A stretch of DNA of 18,879 bases from Chlamydiota bacterium (GTDB taxonomy: Bacteria; Auribacterota; Tritonobacteria; UBA1439). The translations under genes were made by a program, and so were the position numbers. Positions 6,065 to 17,475 of the stretch are shown piece by piece (position 1 is the stretch's first letter; each line of letters begins with the position of its first letter). Below the pieces are notes generated by a model, which saw only the letters and a list, made by a program, of their open reading frames with translations, searched no databases and was not told where the DNA came from. The stretch spans positions 1-18,879 of the forward strand of contig JBAXOY010000057.1 in NCBI GenBank assembly GCA_037133055.1, given 5' to 3'.

Positions 6065-7249
6065 ATGACCCGCCTCAGGACCGCCGATTTCGACTATGCC
6101 CTGCCCGCCTCCTTCATCGCGCAGGAACCGGCCCCGCGGCGCGAGGACTCACGCCTGATGGTATTCCGAGCCGACCGCGGCACGGTCAGCCACGCCGGCT
6201 TTTCCGGGATCGGCGACCACCTTGGAGATGCAGCCCTTTTGGTGCTCAACGACACGAAGGTCTTCCCCGCCAGGCTGATCGGCAGGAAGGCGGGCACGGG
6301 CGGGCAGGTGGAGGTGCTCCTTTTGCGTGAGCGGGAAGGGGGGGAATGGGAGTGCCTCCTCAAACCGGGCGCGCGGCTGAGGGGAGGGGCGGAGATCGAG
6401 TTCGAGGGGAGTTCGCTCGTCGCCCGGGTGGGGGAGAGAATCCCCGGGGGGATCTTCACGGTCCGATTTGAGGGGGAGGGCGAGTTCTGGGATGAGGTGT
6501 ACAGGATCGGCAGGGTGCCGCTGCCGCCGTATATTAAAAGAAATCCCAAATCCAAAATCCCAAATCCCAACGGAAGAGATCCCGAATCCCAAATCCCAAA
6601 TCCCAACGGAAGGAATCCCGAATCTCAAATCCCAGATACACGAGACAGGGAGGACAGGGAGAGATACCAGACGGTGTACGCGCGGCAACGGGGTGCGGTC
6701 GCCGCTCCGACCGCGGGGCTTCATTTCTCCACGGAACTTCTGGAGCGGCTCGCGTCACGGGGGATCGAAACGGCGACGCTCACCCTCCACGTCGGCCCGG
6801 GCACCTTCAGGCCGGTGAGCGGGGAGTACGTCGCGGATCACAGGATGCACCCCGAGTGGTACGAGATCGGGGAGGGGGCCGCGGAAAGGATCAACCGGGC
6901 GCGCCGCGAGGGGAGGCGCGTGGTGGCGGTGGGGACGACCTCGGCGCGGGCGCTCGAAGCCGCCGCCGACGAAGGCGGTGTTGTCAGGGCGGGCGCGGCG
7001 TGGACGGAGATATTCATCTATCCCCCCTACCGGTTCAGGGTCGTGGAAAACCTGCTCACCAACTTTCATCTCCCCGGCTCGACGCTCCTGATGCTGGTCG
7101 CCGCGCTCGCGGGCAGGGAGAGCGTGCTCGAACTGTACGAGATCGCCAAGAGAGAGGGGTACAGGTTTTATAGCTACGGAGACGCGATGTTAATTTTAAA
7201 TCCCAAATCCTCCGCCGAAGGCGGACAAATCCCAAATCCCAAAAGATGA
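6065..7249 (+). CDS. queA: SAM:tRNA ribosyltransferase-isomerase QueA with an internal repeat insertion and a C-terminal extension (alternative start at 6053)
   Basis: DFDY.LP...IAQ.P, LVLNDTKVFPARL, PLPPYIKR, RYQTVYA, AAPTAGLHF, TLHVG.GTF.PV, VGTTS.RALE, LLTNFHLP.STL and YRFYSYGDAMLI. Confidence 0.95.
   Translation: MTRLRTADFDYALPASFIAQEPAPRREDSRLMVFRADRGTVSHAGFSGIGDHLGDAALLVLNDTKVFPARLIGRKAGTGGQVEVLLLREREGGEWECLLKPGARLRGGAEIEFEGSSLVARVGERIPGGIFTVRFEGEGEFWDEVYRIGRVPLPPYIKRNPKSKIPNPNGRDPESQIPNPNGRNPESQIPDTRDREDRERYQTVYARQRGAVAAPTAGLHFSTELLERLASRGIETATLTLHVGPGTFRPVSGEYVADHRMHPEWYEIGEGAAERINRARREGRRVVAVGTTSARALEAAADEGGVVRAGAAWTEIFIYPPYRFRVVENLLTNFHLPGSTLLMLVAALAGRESVLELYEIAKREGYRFYSYGDAMLILNPKSSAEGGQIPNPKR
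6541..6640. repeat. In-frame AAATCCC-family heptamer array with a 36-bp higher-order unit (4x7+8 bp), about 3 copies
   Basis: AAATCCC AAATCCA AAATCCC AAATCCC AACGGAAG / AGATCCC GAATCCC AAATCCC AAATCCC AACGGAAG / GAATCCC GAATCTC AAATCCC AGATACA. Confidence 0.95.
7198..7243. repeat. AAATCCC array interrupted by the hairpin TCCGCC-GAA-GGCGGA
   Basis: AAATCCC AAATCC [TCCGCCGAAGGCGGA, 7211-7225] C AAATCCC AAATCCC AAA. Confidence 0.92.
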
Positions 7250-8220
7250 GAAAAAGGTATCTCCGCCTCCTGCTGATTTCGTGCATTGTCATCGGCGCAT
7301 TCCTGCCGCCGGCACGCGGTGCGGAGCCGGCCGCCGCGCCCGCCCCCGCGGCGCCGCTCGCCGTATATTTTCTCGAGGTCGGGCACGGCGACGCCACCAT
7401 CATCACAACGCCGGGGGGGAAGTGCGTGCTCATCGACGCCGCGGGAGGCCGCAGGGGGGGCGAGGCGGTCCTCTCTTTCATGGGAAAGAAGGGGATCCGG
7501 CGGATCGACACGGTCGTGATGTCGCACGCGGACGGCGACCATATCGGGGGGATGCCCGCTATTCTCGAGAGCCCGCTCGCAGTGGGGGAGTTTCTCGATC
7601 CCGGCTATCCTCACACGACCGGGCTCTACCAGCGGGTCCTGAAGTCCGTCAAGAACCGCGCGGGGACACGCTATCGCACCGCGAAAGCGGGGGATAGTCT
7701 CGACTTGGGAAGGGAACTCACGGTCCGGGTCCTGAGCCCCTCGGGCAAGCCGCGAAGCACCAACGACAGCTCGATCGTCATCCAGCTCCGCTACGGGAAG
7801 GTCTCCTTCCTCTTCACCGGGGATGCCGGGAGCGGCGCGGAGAAGGGGATGGTAAGGCGGATCGGGGGGGGGTTGAGGTCGCAGATACTCAAGGTCGCGC
7901 ACCACGGGTCGAAGTCGTCCTCCTCGGAGCCGTTCCTTTTGTCCGTGAAGCCCGAGGTCGCAGTCGTGAGCACCGACAGCACCGGCCCTGACGGCCCGTA
8001 CATTGAGACCATCGACAGGCTGCGCAAGGCGGGGGCGAAGGTGTACCAGACGGGGCGATACGGGATGGTCACGGTGGAGTCGGACGGGAAGGGCTACCGG
8101 GTCCTCACGGAGCGGGTTCCCGGGCGGGCGACCGTGACCGCGCGCGAAACCCCGGCAGTCACTCCCGCGCTCATCACGCCGCGTGAGATGCCCGTTTCAA
8201 CCGGGGCCGTCCCACAATGA
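7246..8220 (+). CDS. Secreted MBL-fold metallo-hydrolase, similar to the ComEC/Rec2 C-terminal domain
   Basis: Signal-peptide-like N-terminus, FLEVGHGDA, LIDA, SHADGDHIGG (HxDxDH), NDSSIV, LFTGDA and LKVAHHGS. ATGA overlap with the queA stop. Confidence 0.85.
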   Translation: MRKRYLRLLLISCIVIGAFLPPARGAEPAAAPAPAAPLAVYFLEVGHGDATIITTPGGKCVLIDAAGGRRGGEAVLSFMGKKGIRRIDTVVMSHADGDHIGGMPAILESPLAVGEFLDPGYPHTTGLYQRVLKSVKNRAGTRYRTAKAGDSLDLGRELTVRVLSPSGKPRSTNDSSIVIQLRYGKVSFLFTGDAGSGAEKGMVRRIGGGLRSQILKVAHHGSKSSSSEPFLLSVKPEVAVVSTDSTGPDGPYIETIDRLRKAGAKVYQTGRYGMVTVESDGKGYRVLTERVPGRATVTARETPAVTPALITPREMPVSTGAVPQ

Positions 8221-8227
8221 TGCCCAT

Positions 8228-8260
8228 CGTTGGGATTTTGGATTTGGGATTTGGGATTTT
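8228..8260. repeat. Inverted copy of the heptamer array (GGGATTT x4)
   Basis: CGTT GGGATTT TGGATTT GGGATTT GGGATTT; the reverse complement of 8228-8259 matches 6541-6572 at 30/32. Confidence 0.93.
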
Positions 8261-10406: not shown

Positions 10407-10462
10407 AGCTGTAAGCTCTAAGCTATAAGCTTACAGCTTAGAGCTTACAACTTACGACTTAA
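10407..10462. repeat. Heptamer array (AGCTNTA / AGCTTAN, 8 units) forming a ~46-bp near-perfect palindrome
   Basis: AGCTGTA AGCTCTA AGCTATA AGCTTAC AGCTTAG AGCTTAC AACTTAC GACTTAA; centre of symmetry 10429/10430, with 19 of 20 pairs matching over 10410-10449. Confidence 0.93.
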
Positions 10463-13048: not shown

Positions 13049-14020
13049 ATGCCCCCATCCGTCTCCAAGGTCACATCGCTCCTCGTCGTGAGCCTCGGGG
13101 GCCTCGGGGATTTCGTGACCCGGTGGCCCCTGTGGCAGTCCTTCCGGCGCTCCTTCCCCGGCGCGAGGATCGCCTACCTCGGCTATCCGCGCCATGCCTG
13201 CCTGCTCCGCGGAGCGGGCCTCTGCGACGAGGCCCTCCAATTTGACGCGCCCCGCTGGGCGGCCCCGGAGAAATGCCCCCGCGTCTTCGACATCGTGGTC
13301 TCCGCCCTAGGCGGCCGCGGCGCGGACTGGGCGGAGCGCCTGAAAACCGCCGCGGGGGCCTCCCGGCTTCTCTCGCTGGAGCCGTTTCCCCCCGCGGAGG
13401 CGCGGATATCCGTCGGCGCGCATATCGACGCACAGATCCGCGCGTCCGGTCTGGCGGACCCCGGCCCCCTGCGCTGCGGCCTGCCGGCGGATGCGGTCGC
13501 GTGGGCCGCGGCATGGCGGGGAGCCCGCGGGCTGTCGTGCGCGGAGACCGTAGCCATCCACCCCGGGAGCGGATCGGAGGGGAAAAACTGGCCGCGCGAG
13601 AGGTATGAAGCCCTCGCATCCTCCCTGGCGGGGTCCGGCACGCGGGTGCTGGTATTCCGGGGCGACGCCGAGAGGGATCGGGGCGAAAGGGCATGGTCCG
13701 ATATGCCCGGCGTCGTGCACGCATCCGGCTTCGACGTGGCGCAGGCGGCGGCTCTCCTGTCCGGATGCCGGCACTACGTCGGGAACGACAGCGGCATATC
13801 CCACCTTGCGGCGCTTCTCGGCGTCCCGTCGGCGGTGATCTTCGGCCCCACGGACCCCGCCGTGTGGGCGCCGCGGGGTAAGCGCGTCACGGTGGTGACG
13901 GGCCGCGCCGCCTGCGCGCCGTGTGGAACGGAGGGGATGCGGGAATGCCGGGACCGGCTTTGTCTGGCGGAAATCGGGGTGGGGGAGGTAAAAGAAAAGT
14001 GCGAAGGGTGTGAAGGGTGA
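13049..14020 (+). CDS. Glycosyltransferase family 9 (ADP-heptose:LPS heptosyltransferase-like); alternative GTG start at 13034
   Basis: GGLGDFV, FPGARI, IHPGSGS..KNWP, VGNDSGISHLAA.LGVP...IFGPTDP..WAP and C-terminal CAPC...C...C. Confidence 0.9.
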   Translation: MPPSVSKVTSLLVVSLGGLGDFVTRWPLWQSFRRSFPGARIAYLGYPRHACLLRGAGLCDEALQFDAPRWAAPEKCPRVFDIVVSALGGRGADWAERLKTAAGASRLLSLEPFPPAEARISVGAHIDAQIRASGLADPGPLRCGLPADAVAWAAAWRGARGLSCAETVAIHPGSGSEGKNWPRERYEALASSLAGSGTRVLVFRGDAERDRGERAWSDMPGVVHASGFDVAQAAALLSGCRHYVGNDSGISHLAALLGVPSAVIFGPTDPAVWAPRGKRVTVVTGRAACAPCGTEGMRECRDRLCLAEIGVGEVKEKCEGCEG

Positions 14021-14067
14021 GAAAGGTGTTACTGCCCATCTACGCCGATACGCGCATACGCACACAC
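13994..14067. repeat. 9-mer array (GAARRGTGN x4) followed by an 8-mer array (ATACGCNN x3)
   Basis: GAAAAGTGC GAAGGGTGT GAAGGGTGA GAAAGGTGT at 13994-14029; CTACGCCG ATACGCGC ATACGCAC at 14040-14063. Confidence 0.65.
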
Positions 14068-14952
14068 TGGGTTAGGGGTAACAGGCTCGTGCATACGGGA
14101 ATCCGCTGGCTCATCGTGGGTGGCTACCTCCTCACGCTCCCCTTCATGCGGCGCGGGTGGGACCTGGTCCGCACGCGGGGAGGGGATCCCGCCGCCGATG
14201 CGCTGCCCCTCGCCGCGGGTCTCGCGCTCGTCGCCGCGCTCGCCTGGTACCTCGTCGCGAAAAAAAGGGAGGTCAGGATATCCGTCTATCTCCTGCTCGC
14301 CGGGGTCTGCGGCGTCTCCGCGGCCCTCTTCTGCTCACTCCGCGAGCCGATCATGAGAATCCACATCGCCCAGTACGCGCTCATGAGCATCTTCGTGTTC
14401 TGGGCGATGGAGGGGGAGAGAGAGGGATGGACGTTCTGTCTATGGGCGGCACTTGTCACCTCCGAACTGGGACTCGCCGACGAGTCGTTCCAGGGGCTTC
14501 TCCCGTCGAGAATTTACGATCTCCAGGATGTCTTCCTCAACGTCAAGGCGGCGATCCTCGGCCAGGCGGTGGTCCTGCTGGTGCTGAGGCCGTGGGAATC
14601 CCACGGCCGCGCGCCGCGGCCGGCGGGGGAAAGAAATCGCGCGGCGTTTACCGCGATCGCGTTCTCGCTCGTCACGCTGCTCGCCCTGCTGAACATCGCC
14701 CTCATCGAGAAAGGGACGCCGACACTCGGCGGATGGGGGAACGCGGTCGTGAAGGGCCGGGACGGGTTTCGCTTCTTTGGCGCCGCGGCGGTCGCCGCGA
14801 ATGCGGTCGTGATCATCGCCGCCTCGATCCTCGCCGCCGCGGGGGGTCCGCTCCGGGGCGCGGCGCGCGCTCTGCGCGCCGCCGCCGTCTGCGGCCTGCT
14901 CTCGCCGCTTATCCTCATCGCGGGGAGACTGCTCGGGATGCGGTTCCGCTAG
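14017..14952 (+). CDS. VanZ-like integral membrane protein (start uncertain; GTG at 14089 is also plausible)
   Basis: Many hydrophobic helices; IHIAQYALM...GLADESFQGLLPSRIYDLQDVFLN resembles the VanZ-family H..Y / DE..Q...P.R..D..D...N pattern. Confidence 0.7.
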   Translation: MRKVLLPIYADTRIRTHWVRGNRLVHTGIRWLIVGGYLLTLPFMRRGWDLVRTRGGDPAADALPLAAGLALVAALAWYLVAKKREVRISVYLLLAGVCGVSAALFCSLREPIMRIHIAQYALMSIFVFWAMEGEREGWTFCLWAALVTSELGLADESFQGLLPSRIYDLQDVFLNVKAAILGQAVVLLVLRPWESHGRAPRPAGERNRAAFTAIAFSLVTLLALLNIALIEKGTPTLGGWGNAVVKGRDGFRFFGAAAVAANAVVIIAASILAAAGGPLRGAARALRAAAVCGLLSPLILIAGRLLGMRFR

Positions 14953-14985
14953 CATGAAACAGGAATTCAGCGTTACACGCTTCAC

Positions 14986-15381
14986 CGCCGGGACGCAGAT
15001 GAACGCAGATCGTCAGGATGGACGCGGATAAAGATGAGTTTCACCACGAAGAAAACGGCAAAGAGACTCTGGACGCGGATCGCCGCGGATGAACGCGGAT
15101 AAAATGCGGAACAAAGATACAAAGGCTTTTGGGACGCAGATGAACGCAGAGCACGCAAATACCACAATGGGTCAAGATTAAAGGCTCGCGATGGGAGCAC
15201 GCGGCGTTAAAAATCCGCGTTCATCCGCGGCAATCCGCGTCCCATCTGCTTTTGTAAAAGAATGGCGTCTCAACTATTCTCTATGGTATCTGCGTTCATC
15301 TGCGAAATCCGCGTCCAATTCGGGTATCCCGCCGCTTTTGTCCCCGTTTTGTATCCTGACGATCTGCGTGCATCTGCGTGC
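14986..15381. repeat. Gene-free block of six ~30-bp decamer-triplet repeats (unit GRACGCRGAT), three forward then three inverted
   Basis: A 14991-15019 pairs with A' 15353-15381 (27/29). B 15071-15100 pairs with B' 15213-15242 (29/30). C 15132-15164 pairs with C' 15284-15316 (imperfect, shared ACCA end). Confidence 0.92.
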
Positions 15382-15440
15382 TACGTTAAAGCCTGATCAG
15401 AATAGGAGTTGTCCTCCCCAAGATGCGTCCCCTTACGTCA

Positions 15441-15505
15441 CGCGGGCATTTTCGCTTGATTTGCCCGCGGGCGGGATGCTAGTGTAAGGTCCAGTCACAA
15501 GGAGG
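15441..15505 (+). promoter_or_regulatory. Putative sigma70 promoter, operator-like inverted repeat and ribosome binding site
   Basis: TTGATT 15456-15461, 18-bp spacer, TGc-TAGTGT 15477-15485; CGCGGGCA (15441-15448) and TGCCCGCG (15462-15469) flank the -35; AAGGAGG at 15499-15505. Confidence 0.5.
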
Positions 15506-15510
15506 GTCCG

Positions 15511-17475
15511 GTGCCCGCAGCACTCGCGATCGTTATCGCCGCGCTCGTAGTGTGTATCCCGGCGCCGGCCCCCGCCGCCGCCCCGGTTCCTGCCGACACC
15601 CCCGCTGCCGCTCCCACGCCGCAGCCGGGCTGCCGCATCGACCTCGATACGTTCACCGTGGACGGCGCGGGGCTCCTCTCGACGCCCGACGAGGTGCGCG
15701 CCCTGCTCGGCGCCCCCGATGAAGAGCAGCAGCTCTCTGCCATCGTGGAGGAGTCCGAGAAGGAAAAGGAGCGGGGCCAGGGGGATGCGGACGACGAAGC
15801 CCTGGATACCCGGGCACCGGCGAAGCAGCAGGGCAGGTTCATCTACGGCTATTTCACAAAGGGCATCAGGGTTGTCTTCCTCGCGGAGACAAAGCGCATC
15901 GAGTCGATCGATATGTACATCAAGGGGCTGCCCCCGTACGACCGCTTCACGGGCTCCTTCACGCAGCCGTTTTCGACCGACGTCAGGGAAACGGAACTGC
16001 TGAGGCCTCTCGCCCGCCAGATCTACAAGGACGCGCCCAACACCCTCTTCCTCAAGAAGGACGACCGCGCCCCCAATCGCGAAACGGCCCTGCTCGCCTT
16101 CAACGTCGAGGGATGGCTCACCAAGGTGACCTTCGCGTGGGAGGAAAATTACGCCATCGACTTCGACCGGTTCAGCGTGGCGGGCGTGGGCCTGGGCGAC
16201 CCGACCTCGACTATCCTGGAGCGCCTCGGCCCGCCCGACCGCTATGGCGCCCGCGGGAAGGAGCTTATCGGCAAATGGGAGCGGGAGGGGATCAAGGTCT
16301 TTGCGCTCAAGAAAGACGGGCGGATAAGCCGCATCGTGGTCGCGCTCGGCAGGTTTGACGGAGGGTGCGTCCAGCGGTTCTCCCTCACGCAGCGGAAGCC
16401 CGCCTTTCACGACTACCTGAAGGACCGCATATACCAGGAATCGGCCTCGCGGATGTGCGCCTATCGGAAGGGCGAGCCGCAGAGCCCCGAGAAAGCCGTC
16501 CTCAATTTTGACGAAAGCGACCGCCTCAAAACGCTCGCGTTCGACCGCATGCCGAACATCGAAATCAACCTCGAGGATTTTACCATCGGCGGGCTCAGGG
16601 TCGGCGACCCGGCATCGAAGGTGAAACAGCTCCTCGGGCCGGTCGGGAAGTGGCGCCGCGCGGGAAAGTACGTGGTCCTCGGGTATCCAAATTATGGCAT
16701 CCGCGTGCACGTGTCGAAGGCACACGAGATAGAGGGAGGCGAGAAGGGGAAGAGGTTCAACTGGGCCGACATGGGCGAGGTGAAGAAGGTGGATGCGCCG
16801 CTCAACACCTCTGCGGGCCTGTACGGGAACCCGTTCTCGCTCGGCGCGGTGATGAAGACGTGGGAGAAAGAGGCGTCTCCCCTGATCTTCAACAAAAAAA
16901 ATGACACGCTCTACCTCAGCCCGGACGGCAAGCCGCCTTCGCCCGGCGTCGCCGCGCTCGTCGAGTTCGAAAGGGTAGGATGGCCGAAGGCCGTCACGCT
17001 GAGGGAGTTCCGCGACATCGTGGTCGACATGAAGAAGTTCTCGGCGGCCGGCATCACGATCGGGACGCACGCCGACGAGGTCATCCGGGTGCTCGGCAAG
17101 CCCGACAGGGGCCGCGTGATCGAGAGGGACAACTTCGAGGTGATGCGCTATATCGAGAAGGGGATCACCGTGGTGCTGGACCGGCTGAACCGGAGCGTGT
17201 GCAAGATCACCCTTTACATGGACCGGTTCGAGGGGTCGTTCGCCCAGGACCTTACCCCCGATTCGAACGCGGACGACTTTGAGAAGGCGACGCATGCCCA
17301 GGTCTATACGCAGGACGAGAAGAGGATCTGCCTGAGCCGCGACGGGGCGCCCCCGACATGGGAGGAGGGCATTATCAACTTCGGCCTCTCAGGGGAGGTG
17401 GACACGATCATCTTCCAGACACTCGCCGTCAAGAAGGAGGGGATTCTCCTTGACATTACCAGGGAGCTCGAATGA
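15511..17475 (+). CDS. Hypothetical secreted protein with four ~135-175 aa internal repeats
   Basis: GTG after AAGGAGG, hydrophobic signal, Pro/Ala linker; repeats begin IDLDTFTVDG, IDFDRFSVAG, INLEDFTIGG and VDMKKFSAAG, each followed by a [VI]...LG.P-like motif. Confidence 0.85.
   Translation: MPAALAIVIAALVVCIPAPAPAAAPVPADTPAAAPTPQPGCRIDLDTFTVDGAGLLSTPDEVRALLGAPDEEQQLSAIVEESEKEKERGQGDADDEALDTRAPAKQQGRFIYGYFTKGIRVVFLAETKRIESIDMYIKGLPPYDRFTGSFTQPFSTDVRETELLRPLARQIYKDAPNTLFLKKDDRAPNRETALLAFNVEGWLTKVTFAWEENYAIDFDRFSVAGVGLGDPTSTILERLGPPDRYGARGKELIGKWEREGIKVFALKKDGRISRIVVALGRFDGGCVQRFSLTQRKPAFHDYLKDRIYQESASRMCAYRKGEPQSPEKAVLNFDESDRLKTLAFDRMPNIEINLEDFTIGGLRVGDPASKVKQLLGPVGKWRRAGKYVVLGYPNYGIRVHVSKAHEIEGGEKGKRFNWADMGEVKKVDAPLNTSAGLYGNPFSLGAVMKTWEKEASPLIFNKKNDTLYLSPDGKPPSPGVAALVEFERVGWPKAVTLREFRDIVVDMKKFSAAGITIGTHADEVIRVLGKPDRGRVIERDNFEVMRYIEKGITVVLDRLNRSVCKITLYMDRFEGSFAQDLTPDSNADDFEKATHAQVYTQDEKRICLSRDGAPPTWEEGIINFGLSGEVDTIIFQTLAVKKEGILLDITRELE

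Follow-up and report, generated by a model that had tools for sequence, protein, structure and literature searches.

How do six short repeats, three forward and three inverted, come to share a single gap between two genes, and does the order in which they stand there serve any purpose? The window analysed here is the whole of an 18,879-nucleotide stretch of DNA from a Chlamydiota bacterium, and a sequence-only reading had marked positions 14986-15381 in it as a gene-free block of three inverted repeat pairs with crossed topology, to be explained as a structured ncRNA or ssDNA, as overlapping inversion sites or as stacked empty cassette ends. In the following, G000 is the source genome, C-numbers are its contigs, G001-G007 are relatives and L-numbers are loci. 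Our analysis confirmed the six blocks, three in each orientation, in the gene-free gap (Table 1). Blocks A to D are built of tandem 9-10-mers, and A/A' and B/B' are indeed near-perfect inverted pairs, with complementarities of 96% over 27 nt (cores matching at 25 of 26 positions) and 97% over 30 nt (26 of 27), respectively. The proposed third pair, C/C', did not hold up as a specific pairing, because the inverted block in question is of a different type, D', and the true order is therefore A B C B' D' A'; C and D' share 20 identities, the same number as C and A', while B and D' share 22. The spacers had been described as AT-richer and unique, of which the first was borne out (GC content of 0.52 in 15001-15500 vs. 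0.59-0.72 in the remaining bins) but the second was not, since the genome holds 5-16 further copies of five of the six segments tested and one of the sixth; no other copy exists of two control segments taken from flanking DNA. The element as a whole extends from about 14962 to 15436 (about 475 bp), beyond the limits that had first been flagged, and begins a few bases past the stop codon of the VanZ-like gene. Like an IS66-derived MITE it is short and has no coding capacity, the only start-to-stop ORF of at least 80 aa within the gap being one of 98 aa that has no Pfam match.

Table 1. Features of the repeat element and of the two genes that enclose it (window positions).
Feature	Position	Strand	Remarks
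VanZ-like membrane protein gene, upstream host	14017..14952	+	Pfam VanZ E 7.7e-5, below curated cut-off; orthologs in relatives
Remnant tail of CGTC-1/dRS3-like REP palindrome; truncated left edge of element	14962..14970	+	
Conserved outer flank of left arm	14971..14993	+	Segment 14960-14993: 21 further copies
Block A, terminal arm of repeat shell	14994..15019	+	81 A blocks genome-wide, 47 identical to this one
Block B, optional module	15074..15100	+	54 B blocks, 31 within 1 mismatch; missing from many copies
Block C, arm overlapping GxxExxY gene start in filled cassettes	15135..15160	+	C122, L047 cassettes
Centre, gene position in filled cassettes; here two spacers and B'	15161..15287	.	C122, L047; spacer copy numbers 14, 9 and 5
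Block B', optional module, inside C...D'	15213..15239	-	
Block D' (the C' of the sequence-only reading), arm after GxxExxY stop codon in filled cassettes	15288..15313	-	
Block A', terminal arm of repeat shell	15353..15378	-	
Conserved outer flank of right arm	15379..15404	-	Segment 15379-15398: 10 further copies
Worn IS66-type terminal inverted repeat, right end of carrier MITE	15405..15436	-	3 mismatches to family pattern
Expected right copy of 8-bp target duplication	15437..15444	+	Left partner missing
Downstream host gene, 654 aa, no clear family	15511..17475	+	Upstream region conserved in relatives

Other repeats were seen in the same window. Tandem repeats of the 7-base GGGATTT type, in both orientations, occur at 6538-6645, 7227-7251 and 8219-8259, inside queA, where they encode NPKSQIP runs, and at gene ends, and a perfectly abutting inverted pair of 7-base repeats lies at 10407-10452 between an HD-domain gene and secD/F.

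The explanation that we favor, with reasonable confidence, is that the block is a truncated, gene-less shell of a GxxExxY cassette, likely placed by an IS66-derived MITE that later lost its left end. When the whole assembly was scanned for typed blocks, 329 were recorded, grouped into 164 clusters; 70 clusters hold at least two blocks, and in all 42 clusters with blocks on both strands the forward blocks precede the inverted ones, as expected for the arms of an element. Near full-length relatives of the window copy, with 78-84% identity, are present on C79, C6, C93 and C12. When block order was surveyed in 31 loci hand-picked from the clusters, the crossed order, which results from the placement of B' inside C...D', was found in five including the window (C57, C6, C93, C12 and C166), and C79 was judged by eye to be crossed as well. 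B' lay outside D' in four of the 31 loci, seven showed A C D' A' without B, and four consisted of A A' alone. The blocks thus represent a dispersed, modular family with inward-facing arms, in which the crossed order is a trait of a subfamily and B and B' are optional modules. A genome search for other copies and for genes enclosed by them had been recommended on the basis of the sequence, and it was rewarded with dozens of copies and with the finding that the same arms bracket GxxExxY genes.

G000 has two such genes, on C111 and C122, which match TIGR04256 (E 6e-39 and 7e-40), and both carry these arms. The C111 gene is flanked by A A A on one side and by A' on the other, with the end type of the window's left-arm outer flank found 3' of the gene and that of the right-arm outer flank 5' of it. 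On C122, A B C D C precedes the gene and D' follows it, block C encoding the first residues of the predicted GxxExxY protein, and at L047, which encodes an 88% identical protein, a filled C-gene-D' unit directly follows an empty C...D' unit. These two layouts identify C and D' as the gene-proximal arms, and the centre of the window element hence corresponds to the position of the gene. At 58 of 79 usable GxxExxY loci (80 relatives fetched, 200 bases analyzed on each side) an exact inverted match of at least 10 bp was detected, compared to 4 of 65 control pairs taken from the windows further out, and 21 loci fell below the 10-bp cut-off. Thirty of the 79 loci had the unit type of the window on both sides in inward orientation, a count favored by the fact that the loci were partly found via a pattern from the repeat-encoded N-terminus, which selects for arms of this type. 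Likewise, among 41 related genomes, which as kin are not independent, the unit pattern was present in 18 of 25 with a GxxExxY gene and in 2 of 16 without one, seven of the gene-positive genomes being devoid of this single repeat pattern. The window blocks share identity and orientation with those around intact GxxExxY genes. This supports the suggestion of stacked empty cassette ends, in that the blocks are the arms that flank GxxExxY genes, and the window block a gene-less shell of such a cassette.

Two observations concern the filled cassettes themselves. A 107-bp module containing A stands in three tandem copies ahead of the C111 gene (C111:1-290) and recurs at C166:2513-2806. In addition, a GxxExxY cassette lies just upstream of a transaldolase-like gene at both L001 (G000:C111) and L047, and since the L047 protein is closer to that of C122 (88% identity) than to that of L001 (65%), the comparison of these proteins points to a putative cassette replacement at this site.

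If the shell is a cassette remnant, the question arises of what carried it into the gap. In many copies a REP of the CGTC-1/dRS3 type, a designation taken from the part of PMC3733652 consulted, lies outside the arms and is followed by a conserved end. A loose scan, with false hits among its results, returned 27 right-type and 29 left-type outer ends, whose outside flanks gave nine exact matches at 8 bp and none at 7, 9, 10 or 11 bp, against a null mean of 0.03. In seven of the nine matches the two halves of an element lie on different contigs; of the remaining two, one belongs to the complete C85 element and the other to an element on C34 (C34:23812-23914) that carries other cargo. Complete MITEs with both terminal inverted repeats are present on C85, C93 and C6, and seven split elements pair exactly by their flanks; over 150 bases, three of the split ones share 98-99% identity, which indicates recent spread. 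The same MITE ends were found in five of the seven family members, with 166 end matches in G003, and six of eight regions fetched from G003 and G006 showed exact 8-bp duplications around a cargo that consisted of a REP pair or another hairpin, without arms. G007 contains a 1.8-kb element with a DDE_Tnp_IS66 gene, the ends of which match those of the family (young right end 16/18, left 15/18). Family and protein queries detected no IS66 transposase in the 92% complete assembly of G000 itself. The MITE end pattern had no match in viral contigs and one in metagenome contigs. A pair of ends 1.8 kb apart on G003:C209, considered as a possible autonomous element, proved to be two separate MITEs. The IS66-type carrier was also seen to hold different hairpin cargo in different genomes (G000 C34, L162 and L164).

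The window copy retains one side of this carrier. On the right it ends precisely at the MITE terminus, beside a conserved promoter region, and this end is identical to the G007 IS66 end at 10 of 18 positions, compared to 15-16 of 18 in young copies. The left side breaks off within the REP at about 14962, ahead of which the contigs of other copies diverge, and a fuller REP occupies the equivalent position in the copies on C8, C13, C85 and C154. The left partner of the 8-bp duplication is absent, the best match in 14850-15000 having two mismatches and lying inside the upstream gene. Both ends and a target duplication are thus found in the family but not in the window copy, and because the latter has a right end only (15405-15436), it was classified as a truncated derivative rather than an intact MITE.

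Another family of MITEs is present in the same genome. Its members have ISBst12-like ends and carry 7-base repeats together with a four-helix-bundle (PF05635) gene that has lost its interior, so that its two ends are joined. This second family occurs on C3, C8, C22, C32, C38, C42, C44, C68, C85, C97, C103, C110 and C117, and 9 of 13 end pairs show an 8-bp duplication within one mismatch. Its ends resemble ISDge4 of the ISBst12 group, as far as the portion of PMC12898284 consulted describes it. A full-length four-helix-bundle gene with ends of this family is located at C135:509-811, and the GxxExxY shells on C8 and C103 each have one of these MITEs within them.

A comparison with relatives shows the locus with and without an insert. 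The downstream 654-aa gene is present in all seven family members, and in G002, which belongs to the same genus, as well as in G006, the stop codon of the upstream gene is followed almost directly by the conserved promoter region, leaving the empty orthologous site that is expected in relatives for an IS66-derived MITE. G003, G004, G005 and G007 have other short-repeat inserts ahead of the 654-aa gene, the upstream genes in G004 being different, and the corresponding G001 locus was left out of the comparison because its upstream region is not comparable. The repeat family itself was not found in G001 or G002 (80% and 96% complete). At the same intergenic position upstream of the 654-aa ortholog, L018, L019, L020 and L021 represent different inserts in four relatives, and this diversity suggests that the position is a repeatedly used target. 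The 654-aa protein contains repeats, gives only a weak hint of DUF7738 and occurs in 8 of 40 relatives, namely the seven family members and one further member of the class. A second shell, on C73, faces an empty site in G001 and has no visible 8-bp duplication, and the sites on C71 and C10 are shorter in G001/G002 than in G000 and too diverged for junction mapping. With regard to the assembly, contigs from four DNA runs showed no strand change among the 15 joints listed out of 17, and none of them spans the element; since block A is connected with the upstream gene by X2 and X4 contigs and the right flank with the downstream gene by one X2 contig, a misassembly at this locus is unlikely.

The IS66-type carrier does not account for every copy. 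An IS66-type end lies within 130 bp of 16 of the 77 A blocks with enough flank, while for 47 of the 77 both an IS66-type end and a REP remnant are lacking. Together with the C73 insert, these bare blocks indicate that a second route of spread exists, for which the GxxExxY nuclease is a candidate. The residues D80, E90 and K92 are kept in at least 90% of 61 aligned GxxExxY sequences, and a confident structure prediction (pLDDT 88) showed a generic PD-(D/E)XK resemblance, to Cas4 SSO0001, lambda-type exonucleases and Hjc (best Z 7.8, rmsd 3.6, 100 residues aligned); the search of PDB structures gave no chain at Z of at least 8 and no standout match, and the search of PDB sequences no significant match. 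The partner gene, which lies outside the window, is thus predicted to encode a protein with the PD-(D/E)XK core fold and its D...ExK residues. In the part of PMC3424549 consulted, the GxxExxY family is listed as being of unknown function and subject to multiple transfers. We infer that this nuclease acts on the arms. The shell could accordingly be imagined to have arrived via the cassette's own route, with the nuclease cutting hairpin or cruciform arms and host repair copying them, and with the IS66-type right end gained later by recombination with a MITE-borne copy, a scenario that we consider rather improbable for the window copy. It would agree with the large share of bare A blocks, with the C73 shell, which is an insert relative to G001, with the presence of different short-repeat inserts immediately before the 654-aa gene in the loci of four of seven relatives, and with the conserved residues and predicted nuclease fold of the protein. 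However, no activity of a GxxExxY protein was reported in the portions of the literature consulted, the fold matches are middling and single out no junction resolvase, and the window element ends on the right exactly at the MITE terminus and on the left within the REP layer, which is what a truncated MITE would show. Among 100 loci (at least one duplicate in the set), none had an intact GxxExxY gene flanked by IS66-type ends and a duplication, a result that counts against the favored MITE-borne origin.

The crossed order of the blocks had suggested a different origin, in which the region would be a structured ncRNA or ssDNA with a pseudoknot or two alternative folds, selected at this locus. 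The region does fold far better than shuffled versions (z of -8.9 for RNA and -9.2 for DNA), the pairing of B with either B' or D' means that alternative folds exist, the crossed order is common to five or six copies, and the position between two co-directional genes makes read-through possible. However, the partner-specific variants that had been taken as a sign of maintained pairing turned out to be specific at the family level only, the block order also differing between copies. In the comparison that the sequence-only reading had itself put forward, which was performed for A/A', with B/B' listed for seven elements, own partners in all 18 complete A...A' elements differed by 1.17 mismatches on average and shuffled partners by 1.15 (P=0.72), so that partner covariation of A/A' is absent. 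Block order is not kept across the family, and the orthologous site in G002 and G006 does without the element altogether. The best plus-strand RNA fold (-187.5 kcal/mol, from folding that is not pseudoknot-aware) is a nested rod in which all six blocks are paired as A/A', B/D' and C/B', whereas DNA and minus-strand folds favor A/A' plus B/B'; an Rfam scan of the whole window gave no match, and threading would probably be needed for two helices, each of about three turns, to cross within a closed outer stem. A pseudoknotted RNA is thus without support and unnecessary as an explanation, the crossed layout looks like an incidental by-product of module shuffling, and selection for such a structure at this locus is in our opinion highly unlikely. 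As a caution, nested repeats of this sort can mimic pseudoknotted RNAs.

The third proposal, that the block pairs are overlapping sites of a programmed, shufflon-like inversion system, finds some agreement in other copies. Outer flank and inner spacer do not belong together in 14 of 59 classifiable A blocks, and on C60 both ends of the copy show this exchange; interiors have therefore been flipped in the past, and inversion does occur in the family. However, the window copy shows the common arrangement, its interior contains nothing coding or promoter-like, its flanking genes do not encode recombinases, and no adjacent recombinase gene was found. A single inversion, moreover, should not be able to turn D' B' into B' D' without a strand flip. 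The rare flips are most simply accounted for by ordinary recombination between the 26-bp inverted repeats, and we give next to no credence to a programmed system.

In summary, the origin of the window block as a MITE-borne, gene-less GxxExxY shell would involve the following steps. A cassette would have lost its gene, leaving the arms A-C...D'-A', and the resulting shell may have ended up between two REPs of the CGTC type within a MITE, so that IS66 transposase acting in trans could copy the entire nest to new intergenic sites. Recombination among near-identical blocks would then have added, removed and reordered modules, placing B' inside C...D' in one subfamily, and the window copy would finally have lost its left end and is probably immobile now. 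Its effect on the host, if there is any, would be of the kind that long hairpins in read-through transcripts ordinarily have. Although the window block itself is probably an immobile relic, it provides a worked example, precise as to ends and duplications, that accounts for a common but otherwise unexplained kind of intergenic repeat. Such repeats are linked by it both to IS66 carriers and to a widespread family of nucleases of unknown function. The main interest lies in the candidate nuclease-arm system rather than in the window copy, and both cutting or binding of the arms by GxxExxY proteins and movement of the nested MITE by IS66 transposase can be tested now. As a tentative and somewhat doubtful generalization, GxxExxY genes and their inverted arms may constitute an undescribed class of selfish elements that depend for their movement on a minimal PD-(D/E)XK nuclease and not on a DDE or HUH enzyme. 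Their gene-less shells would colonize intergenic gaps in many phyla and be captured and amplified by IS66 MITEs, as in the parallel case of the four-helix-bundle cassettes; the window block would then be a second-stage shell.

Among known systems, IS66-derived MITEs resemble the window family in being non-coding and multi-copy, with ends that start with GTA and exact 8-bp target duplications; a transposase-bearing element with matching ends occurs in the relative G007, and none was found in the incomplete G000 assembly. The excerpts consulted give 20-30 bp ends starting with GTAAGCG and 8-bp duplications for IS66 (PMC11946415), the latter also in a paper that defines MITEs and mobile insertion cassettes (MICs) (PMC3281130). 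In contrast to these, the cargo of the window family is a three-layer nest, a REP pair and then modular GxxExxY arms, the family ends read GTA..GGG(T/A)CA instead of GTAAGCG, and the window copy is one-ended. As for the GxxExxY/PDDEXK_3 family (TIGR04256, PF13366), both genes of G000 match TIGR04256 but the window holds no such gene. Repeat arms around GxxExxY genes or gene-less shells were not described in the literature searched, which covered few subscription journals, and no account of them was given in the consulted portions of PMC3424549, PMC3733652, PMC11946415, PMC12898284, PMC3281130 and 10.1101/2021.01.26.428298. The family shares with REP/REPIN/BIME sequences and their RAYTs, as described in the part of PMC3733652 consulted, an intergenic location, hairpin formation, lineage-specific expansions and mosaic arrays, and its middle layer is a REP pair of the CGTC-1 type. 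However, REPIN units are palindromes of 20-40 bp with a GTAG or CGTC tag, which fits the outer REP remnant but not blocks A to D, since these are tandem 9-10-mers rather than palindromes and flank a PD-(D/E)XK gene. A RAYT was also considered as the partner of the blocks and rejected, none of eight Y1_Tnp loci coinciding with a multi-block cluster. These eight RAYT-like genes (L003-L010) include several that lie within terminal inverted repeats of their own, unrelated to the blocks. Finally, the empty and filled units that stand in tandem at L047, C111 and C122 are reminiscent of integron cassette arrays with attC sites. In such arrays, however, the repeats run in one direction, whereas the GxxExxY arms face inwards around their unit and the copies are scattered between housekeeping genes.
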